Shown here: one piece after another, positions 33,210 through 43,180 of the stretch
How the letters are laid out: every line of letters starts with the position of its first letter
Numbering within the stretch: the stretch's first letter is position 1
Assembly (NCBI GenBank): GCA_963749855.1
Contig: CAVVOC010000003.1
Span: forward strand, 308,900 to 372,899
DNA length: 64,000 bases
From: an uncultured Alphaproteobacteria bacterium
Lineage (GTDB): Bacteria > Pseudomonadota > Alphaproteobacteria > Rhodobacterales > Rhodobacteraceae
Reading direction: 5' to 3'
The notes under the pieces: model-generated
What the model saw: the letters and a program-made list of their open reading frames with translations, nothing else
Databases searched by the model: none
What the model was told of the DNA's origin: nothing
Program-made: the position numbers and the translations under genes

Positions 33210-34171
33210 ATGCCCGGCTTCCGCGCGCACCTGTTCCGCGTGCCCCTCGTCATGCTGCTGGCGGGGCTGTCGGCCTGCGCGCCGATCGTGACCGATGCGC
33301 CCCCCGCCCCGCCGGACAGGCCCCGAAGGTCGAAGCAGCCTGCCCCGCCGCCGCCCTCCGCTGCCAGCGAGGCTGCGCGCCAGCACTATGCCAAGGTGCA
33401 GGCCGACCTTCTGTCGCGTGGCCTGATGCGCACCGATGGCGGGCACCGACGACGCGCCCTTCACCGACACGATGCTGGCCGAGAACTTCATCCGCATCGC
33501 GCTTTACGACGAATACACCCGATCGTCGCAGGGCCTGGTCGCGCAGCCCACGCGAAAGCCGCCTGCGCCGCTGGGAACAGCCCGTCCGCGTCGGCCTGCG
33601 CTTCGGCGCCTCGGTCCCGCCCGAGCGTCAGGCCACCGACCGCGCCCGCATCGCCTCGTTCCTCGCGCGGCTTGCAGCGGATCAGCGGGCATCCGATCCG
33701 GCTGTCGGACAGCGCGCCCAACTTCTTCGTCTACATCGTGAACGAGGACGAACGCCGCGCCCTTGGCCCGGTCGATCCGCGCCGCCCTGCCCGGCCTGTC
33801 GCCCGACCGACGTGGCGGGCATCACCGACATGCCGCGCTCCACCTACTGCCTCGTCTATGCGCTGTCCGCCGGGCAGGGCAGCACCTACACCACCGCCTT
33901 CGCGGTGATCCGGGCCGAACATCCCGACCTGATGCGCCTGTCCTGCATCCACGAAGAGATCACGCAGGGCCTGGGCCTTGCCAATGACAGCCCGCTCGCC
34001 CGCCCGTCGATCTTCAACGACGACGAGGAATTCGCGCTGCTGACGCCGATGGACGAGCTGATGCTGAAGATGCTCTACAGCCCCGCGCCTCGTCCACCGG
34101 CATGACCGAGGCCGAGGCCCGCCCCATCGTCTTCCCGCTTGCCACCGCCGCTGATGGGTGGCGAAAGCTGA
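33210..34171 (+). CDS. DUF2927 domain lipoprotein (frameshifted)
   Basis: Lipobox LSAC; CIHEEITQGLGLANDS..RPSIFNDDEEF. Confidence 0.85.
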
Positions 34172-37988: not shown

Positions 37989-39656
37989 TCAGTAGACCCG
38001 CTGCGCGAAGACCTCGCAGCCTGCGCAATCCTGCGTCCGGGTGCGGACCGCGTCGTTCACGTAGACGTTCGAGAAGTGGTACCAGAAGTCGGCGTTGTAG
38101 ACGTTCGGCTCGCGCCAGACCCGGCACTGGAAGCCGATGCTCAGGTCCTCCCAGGGCAGCCCCTGCGCGATCACCCGCATCGCCTCGGCCGCGCGAACCC
38201 GGATCTGGAGGAACCGCATCCCCGCACGTCGGGGCGCGCCGATCACCGGGTCGCCCGCCTCGCGGAAGCGCACGCGTACTGGCTCGGCCAGCGGGGAGAA
38301 GGCATCGTCCGTCAGCACCAGCTCGAAATCGAGGTCGCGGCGGAAGCCTGATCCCGCGAAATAGGCGGCCACCGCCTGCCGGTCGACCGCCCCATACCGC
38401 GCCGCCGTGTCTGCCAGATAGCCCGCCATGTCATCCGCGGGCCAGCGCGGCACCGGATCGGCGGCCCGCTCCACAAGCGTCGCACCCTCGAAGCGGAACA
38501 ACTGCTCGCGCGTCACGTCCAGCAGCCCCGCTCCCGCCTCGGCGCAGTTGGCCTCGAAGGCGGCGATCGCGTTCTTCCCGTTGCGCTCGGCCACATAGGC
38601 GTCGCGCGGCGCGGCTTCCTTGAAGAACCCGGCATAGGGAAGGAACCATGCGGGCCGGGCAAGGCCCAGCATCGTCCGGTTCGTCGCCAGAACGGCATTG
38701 CGGTTGCGCACGACGATCCGACGCTTCTCGTCCTCGTCATAGGTCTCGAAACACAGCGGAAAGCCCGAGGCACCGCCTGCGAAGCTGTTGGCAAAGACGG
38801 TCAACCCCTTGGGAAAACGCCAGAAGTCGATGAAGTTGCAATCCACCCCGAAGAGCGCCGAGAATTCCCCTGTCTCCACCAGAAGCCCCGCATCATCGCG
38901 GAAATCACCGCTCTTCAGGCAGGACAGCGCAACCTCGCCGTCTTCCCACACATAAGCCTCGTCGAATCCCATCAACCGGATGTCGGTGAAGCCCAGGTCG
39001 CGCAGGTAGCGCCGGGTGGAGCCGGTCGCGAAATCGGGTGTCAGGATCGGCATGTCCCGCCGCACGGCGGCAAGACTTTCGGGGTGCAGATGGTCCGGAT
39101 GGTTGTGCGACAGGAACAGCGCGTCGCAGGCGTTCAGCGCCGCGAAACTGTCCTCGGGCGAGGGGAAGGCCAGCCACCAGCCGTTGCCGAAGGCCGGTCC
39201 TTTTACCCAGGGATCAGTGGCGATCCGCAGGCCAGCCGTCTCGACGATCACGCAGGCATGGTTCAGGAAGCGCAACCGGGTCTCGCCCCGGCGGGCAAAC
39301 CCCTGCAACCGCCGCCGCGCCTGCCGCCGTTCCAGCGTCACGACCCCAAGCGGCGCTTCGGCCCGCAAGAGAGGTGCCTTGCGCGCCGCCGCATTGGCAT
39401 AGCACCCCGTCGCCGCATCGAGCCTCCAGCCGTGCAGGGGGCATGTGATCACACCAGCATTCGAAATCAGCCGCCCGCCGTTGTGATCACAAATCCGGTC
39501 ATAGACCGTGACACCGGTGTCATCCCGGTAGAAAATGAAATCCTCGGACTGGGTCACGCCCACGGCCAGCGCCGACAGGTCCGCCTCCACCGCCTCGGTC
39601 GTCACATCGAACGCCGCCGCCCGCCGCTCGAAGCGATGCCCCGCTATCTGCATCAT
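37989..39656 (-). CDS. CMP-N-acetylneuraminate hydroxylase (CMAH)-like protein: Rieske plus MBL fold
   Basis: Rieske C.H (CDH) and CPLH; NHAC, DPWVKGPAFGNGWWL, SHNHPDH, FAGGASGFP, WEDLSIGFQCR..REPNVY..FWYHF. Confidence 0.8.
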   Translation of the reverse strand: MMQIAGHRFERRAAAFDVTTEAVEADLSALAVGVTQSEDFIFYRDDTGVTVYDRICDHNGGRLISNAGVITCPLHGWRLDAATGCYANAAARKAPLLRAEAPLGVVTLERRQARRRLQGFARRGETRLRFLNHACVIVETAGLRIATDPWVKGPAFGNGWWLAFPSPEDSFAALNACDALFLSHNHPDHLHPESLAAVRRDMPILTPDFATGSTRRYLRDLGFTDIRLMGFDEAYVWEDGEVALSCLKSGDFRDDAGLLVETGEFSALFGVDCNFIDFWRFPKGLTVFANSFAGGASGFPLCFETYDEDEKRRIVVRNRNAVLATNRTMLGLARPAWFLPYAGFFKEAAPRDAYVAERNGKNAIAAFEANCAEAGAGLLDVTREQLFRFEGATLVERAADPVPRWPADDMAGYLADTAARYGAVDRQAVAAYFAGSGFRRDLDFELVLTDDAFSPLAEPVRVRFREAGDPVIGAPRRAGMRFLQIRVRAAEAMRVIAQGLPWEDLSIGFQCRVWREPNVYNADFWYHFSNVYVNDAVRTRTQDCAGCEVFAQRVY

Positions 39657-40290: not shown

Positions 40291-40377
40291 CGCCCCCTCC
40301 CGTTCCAGGTCCCGCGATCATGCCCGCATCCCGCCGCTCCGCCAAGCGGCACAACGCCCTTGCTCCACACGTTCAGA

Positions 40378-40406
40378 TTGAAATTCGCCGGGAATCGTGC
40401 TATTAA
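40378..40406 (+). promoter_or_regulatory. Putative sigma70 promoter of the MNIO operon
   Basis: TTGAAA, 17-nt spacer, TATTAA with extended -10 TGn, in an AT-rich patch. Confidence 0.65.
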
Positions 40407-40473
40407 GACCGCGTGCGGAATTTGCCGCGCGCACTTTCGAAACGATCCATTTTTCACAACAGGAATTCACCCA

Positions 40474-40731
40474 ATGGAAAAGCCCATGGAATTGTCGGGC
40501 CGTATGGCGACCCTCAAACTCACCCAAGGCGACGCGATGCCCGTGCTCAGCGCGCGCGTGCCCAACGACCTTCGCAAGGAAGAGTTCGGGTATCTCGCGG
40601 CGAGCGCCTATGACGTCATCAGCAAGCTGACCGGCCATCCCTGCATGTCGGGCCGGATCAAGTTCGTGGTCGAGGATATCTTCCTCAACGAGATTACCCG
40701 CGTCGATCTTCAGACCGGCCGGATGGGCTGA
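40474..40731 (+). CDS. Putative RiPP precursor / MNIO substrate (85 aa)
   Basis: RBS AGGA, GC-rich third codon positions, single Cys in KLTGHPCMSGR, directly upstream of DUF692. Confidence 0.75.
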   Translation: MEKPMELSGRMATLKLTQGDAMPVLSARVPNDLRKEEFGYLAASAYDVISKLTGHPCMSGRIKFVVEDIFLNEITRVDLQTGRMG

Positions 40732-40745
40732 CCCCACCCCAGCCC

Positions 40746-40784
40746 GCCCTCCGGTCTGCGCCGCTCCCGCGCGGGCCGGAGGGC
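40746..40784 (+). terminator. Intergenic stem-loop between precursor and DUF692 genes
   Basis: gccctccggtctgcg pairs with cgcgggccggagggc (15-16 bp including two G-U), followed by a short T run. Confidence 0.6.
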
Positions 40785-40805
40785 CCCTTTCCACGGAGTT
40801 TCCCC

Positions 40806-41717
40806 ATGTCCCCCGCACGTCCCCGGGTCGGAGTCCTCTGCAATCCGACCACCCCCCTGCTGCTGGACCATGCGCCTGCGCTGATCGAGCATATCGCCGT
40901 CATGCCTGACCGCATGTGGTACGATTTCGGCACCGAGGCCGGTCCAGACCGCTTCAGCCCGCTGCACGAGACGATCCGCCAGACGAAGGGCTACCGTCCT
41001 GGCCGAAGTTTCGCCGGGCACGGCCTTGGCCTGTCGCTGCCCAGTGCGATGCCGCTGGACCGCCAGATGCTCTCGGCCGTTGCCGACATGGGCCGGGCGC
41101 TTGGCGGGTTCGACTGGTACAGCGAACATCTGAACGTCTTCATCACACCGAAGGGTGGCGTGCCGAATGCGCAGGCCGGCCTTGGCCTGCCCGTCACCTA
41201 CGACGCCGAAACCTTCGCCATCGTCGCGGCCAAGCTTCACTTCGTGACCGAAGCCCTCGACTGCCGGGTGCTGATGGAGAACGGCAGTTTCTTCACGCCC
41301 GTCGAAGATCTCGACATGACCGAGACAGAGTTCCTGAACCGCCTGTTCCGCGACGGCCACTGCGGCACCCTGCTCGACCTGCACAACCTTCTGGTGAACG
41401 AGCGCAACGGGGGGCCGTCGATAGAGGCATATCTGGAGGCGCTCGACCCCGACGCGGTCGAGGAGGTGCACCTGGCGGGCGGCGACGATGACGAGGGCTT
41501 CTACATGGACAGCCATTCGACCTTCACGCCGGAACGGGTCTGGGAAATGGCCGAGGCCTATCTGCCGCGCTGCCGCAACCTGCGCGCCATCACCTTCGAG
41601 TATCAGGAGTCCTATTTCGCCGACCTCGGCCTGCCGGGGCTGGTGGCGGAACTGGAGCGGATGCACCGGCTGGCCGACCGCTGCGCGACCGTGACGGAGG
41701 CCGCCGATGCTGGCTGA
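40806..41717 (+). CDS. DUF692 family multinuclear non-heme iron oxidase (MNIO)
   Basis: HGLGLSL, WYSEHL, LMEN, LLDLHNLLVN, EVHLAGG, MDSH, TFE metal-ligand motifs. Confidence 0.92.
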   Translation: MSPARPRVGVLCNPTTPLLLDHAPALIEHIAVMPDRMWYDFGTEAGPDRFSPLHETIRQTKGYRPGRSFAGHGLGLSLPSAMPLDRQMLSAVADMGRALGGFDWYSEHLNVFITPKGGVPNAQAGLGLPVTYDAETFAIVAAKLHFVTEALDCRVLMENGSFFTPVEDLDMTETEFLNRLFRDGHCGTLLDLHNLLVNERNGGPSIEAYLEALDPDAVEEVHLAGGDDDEGFYMDSHSTFTPERVWEMAEAYLPRCRNLRAITFEYQESYFADLGLPGLVAELERMHRLADRCATVTEAADAG

Positions 41718-42171
41718 CTTCCAGCAGGCGCTGGCCGACATCACCGCCCGGCCGGGCCTTTGCCGCGAGGTGCGTGACGATCCGGGCCGCCTGTCCGCCT
41801 ACGACCTCACGGACCGCGAGCGTGCGCGGCTGCTGGCCATCGCCAACCATTCCGGCATGGCCGCCGCCTGCACCGTCTACCGGATGAACCGCCTCGCCCC
41901 GCTTGCGATGAACTTGCCCGCCACCCTGCGCGCGCTCGGGCCCCGCTGTCGGGACTGGGTCGAGGACTACTGGCAGGCCCATCCGCGCGGGCACGCGCAT
42001 TTCTTCGTCGAGTCCGAGCGGTTCTGCCGCTGGGCCAGCGACAGGCTCGATGGCGCAGACGCCGTCCTGCGCGCAACGCTGGAAGCAGAGGCGGCGAATA
42101 TTCGGCAGGCGATTGCAGAGAGTCGCGGCAGTCCTGCGCGGGACGCTACGCCGCCTTCACCGGCCCCGTGA
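41707..42171 (+). CDS. Putative MNIO partner protein (DUF2063/RRE-like helical domain)
   Basis: Overlaps the DUF692 stop; LADFQQALA, LPATLRALG, YW..HP, ESERF pattern. Confidence 0.65.
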   Translation: MLADFQQALADITARPGLCREVRDDPGRLSAYDLTDRERARLLAIANHSGMAAACTVYRMNRLAPLAMNLPATLRALGPRCRDWVEDYWQAHPRGHAHFFVESERFCRWASDRLDGADAVLRATLEAEAANIRQAIAESRGSPARDATPPSPAP

Positions 42172-43009
42172 ACGGACCAAGGCAGATGGCGCGGTGCTGG
42201 GCCTGGAAGACGTGGTTGTAAAGCTGCGCCACCCACTGCTTGCCTTCCATCGTTTGCTCCAGATGCTTCAGCGCGGGGCCGATCAGCGGCTGGACCTGCG
42301 ACCAGAAGAAGTTCGGAAACTGCTCCATCAGGTCCATGGGCGAGGTATAGCCCAGCTTTTGCGCAAGGCCCGTCTCGCTGAACTCGTGATAGAGCCCCGC
42401 GATCTTGCGGTGGTAGAACGGATCACCCATCTGCCCCACGAGATCGGCCGCACGGACCAGCGCGGGTTCGCCCTCGGTATCGGCATAGTCCGGCCCCGGC
42501 GGGACCGGAAAGCGGGTGTAGTCGATCGCCCGCACGATGCGCTCGGCGTCGATCAGGGTAGACCCCGTGAAGCGCAGCCGCGCATAGATCTTGCCGCGAT
42601 CGACGTGGTACGGCGCAAGGAAGGCATCCGACGCCCCCCGGGGCGGACAGACCGTTTCGCCCTTTTCGTTGATGACCACCGCCGTCTCGGTATCGCCCGG
42701 CAGGATGTCGCGGGAATAGCCGATGTCGTGGATCAAGAGCGCCACGATGTAGTGCAGCCAGTCCTCCGGCTGGACCGACCGGGTGACAAGCTGCCCCCGG
42801 ATGATCTGCTGGCCGACCAGCGTGACCATCATCGTATGCTCGGCGTTGTGGTAGAGCGCGTCGGAATTTCCCAGCCGTTCCAGCATCATCCGCGCACAGC
42901 CGTTGATATAGGCCGCATAGTCGGCCTTCCGCCCGGCGAAGTATTGCAGGTAGGTCTCGGCCAGGTGGTCGCCGAAGGCGGCGGCGACGACGGCGGTGGG
43001 ATTGAACAT
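42146..43009 (-). CDS. HD-domain metal-dependent phosphohydrolase
   Basis: DALYHNAEHT, LIHDIGY, PYHVDRG, RAADLVGQ. Confidence 0.85.
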   Translation of the reverse strand: MFNPTAVVAAAFGDHLAETYLQYFAGRKADYAAYINGCARMMLERLGNSDALYHNAEHTMMVTLVGQQIIRGQLVTRSVQPEDWLHYIVALLIHDIGYSRDILPGDTETAVVINEKGETVCPPRGASDAFLAPYHVDRGKIYARLRFTGSTLIDAERIVRAIDYTRFPVPPGPDYADTEGEPALVRAADLVGQMGDPFYHRKIAGLYHEFSETGLAQKLGYTSPMDLMEQFPNFFWSQVQPLIGPALKHLEQTMEGKQWVAQLYNHVFQAQHRAICLGPFTGPVKAA

Positions 43010-43180
43010 GCCCGTGATCCTTCGTGCCGGACTGGCTGAGCGGATGCTAGCGCACCCGCTGGCCGCTGCAAAGCGCTTCGGCCCCGGCGAGGCATGGGGC
43101 CACCGCCCGAGGCCCGTCCGCCATGGCCGTTGACAGCGTCCCGCGACCGACGGATAGAGGCGCGATCCGACGGAGGCCCC

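Follow-up and report, generated by a model that had tools for sequence, protein, structure and literature searches.

What is the substrate of an MNIO (DUF692) enzyme whose gene lies between a small open reading frame and a short partner gene, and what happens to that substrate? The question is raised by a locus in a 64,000-nt stretch of contig CAVVOC010000003.1 (assembly GCA_963749855.1) from an uncultured member of the Rhodobacteraceae, hereafter the window. A preliminary description of this DNA reported an 85-aa ORF, a DUF692 gene with intact metal ligands and an overlapping 154-aa gene, co-oriented and free of indels, and our analysis agrees: the genes for a small protein, an MNIO and a partner protein run in one direction, and each is open and full length compared with its homologues (Table 1). 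The small ORF starts inside the interval given in that description, not at its edge. The junction of the MNIO and partner genes is an 11-nt overlap in 35 of 42 loci, the window included, a 7-nt overlap in five and a 2-nt gap in two. The non-conserved tail of the partner gene runs over the 3' end of a convergent HD-domain gene. The small-ORF region is also present in contigs of three runs from three studies at 96-99% identity (3 differences in 395 nt, 12 and one gap in 319 nt, 7 in 360 nt) and is therefore not peculiar to one assembly; no RNA data set was listed among its carriers, which carries no information on expression. Between window positions 34000 and 48000, the SPFH-domain, purC, CoA-ligase and ABC transporter genes (named by inspection) appear frameshifted, probably through assembly indels; the cassette genes are unaffected.

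Table 1. Features of the cassette and its surroundings, in window positions.
Feature	Position	Strand	Basis or remark
Gene with Rieske and metallo-beta-lactamase-fold domains	37989-39656	-	intact
DNA missing in same-genus genome G014	40291-42145		flanking genes joined there by a 4-nt stop/start overlap
Possible sigma70-type promoter	40378-40406	+	sequence by eye; TTGAAA-17-TATTAA, TG just 5' of the -10 element
Small protein gene, 85 aa	40474-40731	+	ORF call; GGA-type RBS at about 40462
16-bp hairpin in the small ORF/MNIO spacer	40746-40784 (arms 40746-40761 and 40769-40784)	+	folding
MNIO (DUF692) gene, 303 aa	40806-41717	+	PF05114, distinct clade
Partner gene, 154 aa	41707-42171	+	all-helical, PME-type 2; 11-nt overlap with the MNIO gene
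HD-domain gene	42146-43012	-	convergent; stop at 42146

The promoter is the weakest element of the cassette. The two hexamers of the sigma70-like promoter that had been described are present and plausible by eye; a consensus scan does not call them, the final T of the -10 element being missing. A pattern fitted to the site is unique within the window, a test that is circular. No common upstream regulatory motif is apparent by eye among 30 loci. The stem-loop reported between the first two genes stands: its folding z-score is -4.8, and none of 200 shuffled sequences folds as well. It lacks a U-run and is not called as a terminator. Hairpins, mostly unrelated in sequence, occur in each of the 13 loci whose spacer exceeds 40 nt, with the shuffle control run at the window locus only. 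The spacer is 26 nt or shorter in 16 of 30 loci (one of the 30 was mis-set), so the hairpin is optional. It likely stabilises the upstream message or dampens read-through.

The enzyme passed the HMM check proposed for it, matching PF05114 at E 5.6e-41 with 141 bits against a cut-off of 25. Nine of nine iron-ligand positions are intact (H72, H108, E158, D191, N194, H222, D235, H237 and E265, of which E158, N194 and E265 are presumably ligands) and are invariant across 40 clade members. Six of these match the DybH pairs H65/H102, D179/H210 and D228/H230 by spacing, as given in the DybH report (PMC13733907). The predicted activity is an O2- and iron-dependent modification of a peptide or protein. 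The enzyme falls far below the cut-off of every model of a characterised MNIO that it matched: BufB (117 bits against 310), HvfB (98 against 360), ChrH (52.5 against 600), MbnB (24.8 against 325) and ApyH (69.4 against 400). It matches TglH at E 1e-14. A FastTree phylogeny of 34 MNIOs places it in a clade of its own (support 1.0) with 55-73% identity, the next relatives being 29-34% identical. It shares 63% identity with its orthologue from Pelomonas sp. KK5 and about 30% with the other MNIO of its host, which belongs to a canonical bufferin-type locus (G000:C3:128925-131576, minus strand) comprising a DoxX-like gene, a partner gene, the MNIO gene and a signal-bearing small ORF (names except MNIO by inspection).

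The partner is modelled as an all-helical protein (pLDDT 91). Searched against 48,161 chains, its fold resembles that of TglI most (Z 8.8, rmsd 4.3, 137 residues aligned); NGO1945 ranks third (Z 7.5) and MbnC ninth (Z 5.5). For a helical model such Z values are only moderate, but the order in which known partners come up is telling. The alignment covers only residues 3-154 of the 268 in TglI; the second domain is missing, so the partner has no RRE. Other comparisons gave no lead on the partner: it has no Pfam or NCBIfam match and no DUF2063 signature, Foldseek with its model returned no match at E <=0.001, and PDB sequence searches with the partner and with the small-protein profile gave nothing significant. 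Short RRE-less partner forms are noted by Antoine et al. (2025; PMC12452194), and the KK5 orthologue of the partner is classed there as PME-type 2.

The three genes occur together wherever DNA is available, which upholds the earlier view of a self-contained small protein-MNIO-partner unit. Thirteen of 18 genome stretches matching small-ORF patterns are relatives; they come from Pseudomonadota, Myxococcota, Acidobacteriota and Actinomycetota, and in all 13 the MNIO and partner genes lie directly 3' of the small ORF. The reverse search identified 32 of 74 metagenome stretches as MNIO relatives. The small ORF is upstream in 27 of these 32 and the remaining five begin inside the MNIO gene or no more than 34 nt from it; the partner is present in 28, and the other four end at or in the MNIO gene. 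Because several of the loci are almost identical to one another, eight of them coming from one Caldimonas-like group, these counts overstate the number of independent cases. The window and 45 related loci have no flanking family in common, and there is no fourth conserved gene. The protease, exporter, ECF sigma factor and DoxX genes said to be missing are indeed absent from the cassette and not conserved in its flanks, and no metal-resistance, DoxX or ECF gene accompanies it in any lineage. Short-chain dehydrogenases and one unannotated group (about 31-33% identity) recur across lineages; they are not in the window and were rejected as parts of the system. The small ORF was found in none of 60 relatives. 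Three phylum samples of 400 genomes each gave none either; 13 candidates were scored per genome there, and distant members may escape. Viral contigs and plasmids yielded no relative, MNIO matches on plasmids being at most 36% identical. The cassette is thus a real, rare, stand-alone set of three genes, intact in scattered bacteria of four phyla.

In the same-genus genome G014 the cassette is absent and the HD-domain gene abuts the left-hand NAD(P)H oxidoreductase gene. Gain of the cassette in the lineage of the window is the simpler reading. No terminal repeats or signs of mobile elements were seen at the cassette ends. Its GC3 of 0.84-0.85 matches that of its neighbours (0.86-0.90), and composition therefore does not show a recent foreign origin. 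The right-hand HD-domain gene is present in five same-genus genomes, in four of which its neighbours differ. This gene is related to Npun_R2479 (299.5 bits, under the cut-off of 400), is patchy in the genus (5 of 15 genomes) and is translationally coupled to the NAD(P)H oxidoreductase gene in G014. To the left of the cassette, a gene combines Rieske and metallo-beta-lactamase-fold domains, an architecture known from CMP-Neu5Ac hydroxylases; it is missing at the same site in G014, so genes have come or gone at this spot on more than one occasion.

The small protein carries a single internal cysteine in a loop that reads T53-G-H55-P-C57-M-S59-G60. All 41 candidates of the small-protein search, the query included, are relatives. 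A profile search extended the family to 68 representatives at 50% identity; three long repeat proteins were then dropped, and the motif count also left out one garbled and one fused sequence as well as fragments without the motif. C-x-S-G is present in 176 of 183 distinct sequences, and C57, S59 and G60 are the only invariant residues among 61 diverse members. His or Cys stands two or three places before the cysteine in 174 of 175 sequences (83 HxC, 82 CxC, 7 CxxC and 2 HxxC; one reads otherwise). In the MNIO tree, CxC loci are basal, HPC loci derived (support 0.92) and CQC loci nested inside HPC, which implies at least two swaps between His and Cys at position 55. A position that accepts only these two residues points to a metal ligand or a nucleophile, and not to a residue whose thiol must be oxidised.

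For the small protein, dN/dS stays under 1 in all 11 close pairs compared, at most 0.26 in eight and 0.42-0.74 in three. The cysteine lies 21-37 residues from the C-terminus in all members except one long outlier, and hydrophobic periodicity is kept on both flanks of the motif, which suggests a strand-strand-helix-loop-strand-strand body. The predicted model (mean pLDDT 57) supports only a helix at 35-53 that ends at the loop; the case for a folded protein therefore comes from conservation. No signal peptide was detected by a hydropathy proxy (highest N-terminal value 0.63), and a credible, Tat-like signal occurs in only one of 175 relatives. That member, P0308, has a twin-arginine-like signal ahead of its CxC domain, hinting that some members may be exported folded. 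None of the 61 diverse members has a convincing Pfam or NCBIfam match; a fold search with the low-confidence model gave a best Z of 4.3, nothing usable and no RRE or PqqD-like match, and the ESM Atlas returned unrelated plant clusters at <=0.91 or no match. Identities of the small protein and of the MNIO correlate across loci (Spearman 0.71 over 276 non-independent pairs from 24 loci). Of the RiPP-like operon in the preliminary description, the three-gene unit is borne out. The pattern of conservation suits a folded protein whose motif is internal more than it suits a RiPP precursor made of leader and core.

The motif extends beyond this clade. An enzyme-alignment search found four sister-level MNIOs in 300 genomes of an Acidobacteriota sample and one in 320 genomes of a Burkholderiales sample. 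Three of the five loci have an upstream small ORF that is recognised by the profile and carries a CxxC-x-SG motif; L071 and L072 do not. The L072 enzyme (L072:1429-2400, plus strand) has R, R and G in place of H72, H108 and E158, lies without a recognisable small ORF or partner gene, and is likely a dead or repurposed copy. hhalign gives 93% and 95% for the two sister CxxC-x-SG proteins tested. Judged from these alignments, the small protein is probably distantly homologous to the CxxC-x-SG proteins beside sister MNIOs, whose enzymes are 29-34% identical to ours. Two more distant loci read L-G-C-x-x-C-H-S-G and L-G-H-x-x-C-Y-S-G with weak hhalign matches (11% and 58%); the HxxC-Y-SG protein precedes a 503-aa MNIO fused to a partner-like domain (L100:922-2638, minus strand). 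A wider group with the motif (C/H)-x(1-2)-C-x-S-G, encoded ahead of MNIOs, probably includes the small protein, and within that group the first Cys has given way to His once more.

Comparison with known systems shows which parts of the cassette are familiar. The partner fold best matches the N-terminal part of TglI and the enzyme matches TglH; by contrast with the pearlin (3-thiaglutamate) pathway, the partner has 154 rather than 268 residues and no PEARL or tailoring gene is conserved. The modified cysteine of TglA is C-terminal, whereas Cys57 is internal. The captophorins (bufferins, oxazolin/HvfA and fontiphorin) share the minimal precursor-MNIO-partner order and internal Cys targets. They differ in having a Sec signal, a PME-type 1 partner (DUF2063 with RRE) and ECF sigma or DoxX genes, none of which is found here, and our protein has one cysteine only; the BufB and HvfB scores fall short of their cut-offs. 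Methanobactin and aminopyruvatide enzymes are set apart by equivalog scores that our enzyme does not reach for MbnB or ApyH.

The closest likeness is to clusters of the survey by Antoine et al. (2025; PMC12452194). Adjamnio-1 and -2 are signal-less precursors with PME-type 2 partners, and adjamnio-7 comprises CxxC precursors. As in our cassette, the small protein of adjamnio-1 and -2 bears a Cys motif and no signal, its gene precedes that of an MNIO, and the partner is of PME-type 2; the chemistry is putative there too. The differences are that about half of the present family has His for the first Cys, and that the enzyme lies outside MNIO clusters 1 and 2, judging by one accession, since Roseateles agri post-dates the survey. 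This accession, the KK5 enzyme WP_077033322.1, occurs once in the survey's table, in the PME-type 2 column only and in no numbered cluster, whereas the members of clusters 1 and 2 that we checked occur four times in the network table (PMC12452194). Network edges correspond to about 40% identity, so our enzyme would group with KK5 and apart from the sister clades, perhaps in a tiny unnumbered cluster or unlabelled in the large one. Sister-clade MNIO accessions are absent from the survey's table. Adjamnio-7 resembles the present family in its signal-less small protein with CxxC, and the CxxC-x-SG and HxxC-x-SG proteins beside sister MNIOs, loci that may be of the adjamnio-7 or -2 type judging by partner length, align to our family. 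The differences are that the spacing in our protein is H-x-C, that its partner is a separate protein of 154 aa, that the enzyme is 29-34% identical to the sister MNIOs, and that the KK5 enzyme, again a single accession, is not listed in cluster 7. A literature search, with subscription journals largely outside it, found no published account of the motif or of relevant MNIO His-Cys chemistry. The putative substrate has no Pfam or NCBIfam match. The earlier claim of an undescribed system was overstated: systems of the adjamnio-1, -2 and -7 type are catalogued, and the orthologous enzyme and partner stand in the tables of that survey (PMC12452194). The cassette is a branch, with putative chemistry, of a surveyed enzyme family; its general type is already catalogued and its motif variant is new.

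The 85-aa protein is very probably the substrate of the MNIO, because of its position, its complete co-occurrence with the enzyme and its one invariant cysteine in front of an enzyme of a mostly Cys-modifying family, and Cys57 is probably the residue modified. The MNIO and its TglI-like partner would oxidise this single internal cysteine. By analogy with the family, the Cys57 thiolate would bind iron and be oxidised to a thioaldehyde, which might close onto the neighbouring backbone to give a heterocycle of the 5-thiooxazole kind. Formation of a 5-thiooxazole changes the mass by about -4 Da. Cysteine is the target of most MNIOs, DybH oxidises the second Cys of its motif first, and a first step to the thioaldehyde, for which there is support in DybH, is proposed to be general among Cys-modifying MNIOs (PMC13733907). 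The small protein would stay folded, uncleaved and cytoplasmic, and its conservation, together with a partner that lacks an RRE, suggests recognition through the folded body rather than through a leader. The conservation of position 55 is likewise consistent with a ligand role instead of thiol chemistry; His55 and the modified Cys57 would form a soft-metal site of the copper type, and the hairpin would provide a surplus of small-protein message. Copper is bound by 5-thiooxazole products according to PMC13097082. We give slightly less than an even chance to this picture as a whole, in which Cys57 is oxidised on a folded cytoplasmic protein and builds a His/Cys-assisted metal site. Several points count against it. 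No metal or stress gene accompanies the cassette and the host already has a bufferin locus, which speaks against a metal role; the enzyme is only about 30% identical to the MNIO of that locus, and the partner is of the type found with TglH and ApyH, whose chemistry is not thiooxazole formation; a single cysteine can yield no more than one heterocycle, which would chelate metal poorly without oligomerisation of the protein; and the three dN/dS values of 0.42-0.74 are comparatively high. Complex prediction for MNIO, partner, iron and small protein gave scores of 0.00, 0.52 and 0.00, with no folded controls, and counts neither for nor against.

Position 55 could instead take part in the reaction, as the first Cys does in ChrH and DybH substrates: Cys57 would be oxidised and residue 55 would be the closing nucleophile, perhaps with a backbone rearrangement at x-S-G, so that CxC members would acquire a thioether ring and HxC members a link between His and Cys. 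We consider this unlikely. In the motif CPACGMG oxidation begins at the second Cys, ring closure is by the first, and a hydantoin forms from the two residues that come next; the two-position motif ends in C-x-x-G and its second Cys is essential (PMC13733907). The register C-x(1-2)-C-x-S-G parallels this motif, one relative even reads C-P-A-C-L-S-G, S59 and G60 are invariant, and an alternation of His and Cys is compatible with two residues that are both nucleophiles. The motif of ChrH and DybH is however C-terminal in an exported substrate, whereas ours is internal, and the ChrH model score is less than a tenth of its cut-off. A three-residue HxC ring would also be tight, and one enzyme clade would have to accept N and S nucleophiles at two spacings; the small HxC ring and the occurrence of two spacings are why we favour the ligand role of position 55. 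It is rather improbable that the clade cross-links His to Cys (Cys to Cys at the sister loci) within a loop of a folded protein and thereby makes a protein-derived cofactor or metal site without leader, RRE, cleavage or export. If true, this would be the first MNIO reaction to involve His and would define a wider (C/H)-x(1-2)-C-x-S-G superfamily of protein substrates.

The small protein might also be a third subunit, serving either for recognition in place of the missing RRE or as a donor of metal or electrons through its His/Cys-x-Cys loop, with the true substrate encoded elsewhere. Loops of the His/Cys-x-Cys kind can bind metal unmodified, the partner is short and without RRE, and the small protein is conserved over its whole length and co-diverges with the enzyme. 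We nevertheless find this role quite doubtful: across 45 related loci no gene for a candidate substrate accompanies the cassette, although the cassette occurs in four phyla, the small ORF sits upstream of the MNIO gene in the usual precursor position, the hairpin after the first gene suggests a product surplus as would be expected of a substrate, and the small protein, albeit from a poor model, has no RRE or PqqD-like fold match. A classical RiPP, whose modified Cys loop is excised by housekeeping proteases and released as a short peptide, is scarcely probable, for although conservation is strongest in a short stretch around the Cys and PME-type 2 partners serve true RiPP pathways (pearlins and aminopyruvatides; PMC12452194), the cassette has no conserved protease or transporter gene, the pattern of a hydrophobic core is kept on either side of the motif, and a signal peptide is lacking here and nearly throughout the family.

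The interest of the cassette is limited by its rarity and by its catalogued general type. What sets it apart is that the residue two places before the single Cys alternates between His and Cys, in an enzyme family where most newly studied clades have revealed new chemistry. The family offers a natural experiment, with the same enzyme group facing HxC and CxC and, further out, CxxC and HxxC putative substrates, and it has cultured carriers in Pelomonas sp. KK5 and Roseateles agri R3-3. The HxC/CxC series bears on the part that the first residue plays, as reactant or as metal ligand, and the cassette as a whole bears on whether an MNIO works on a folded protein without an RRE.
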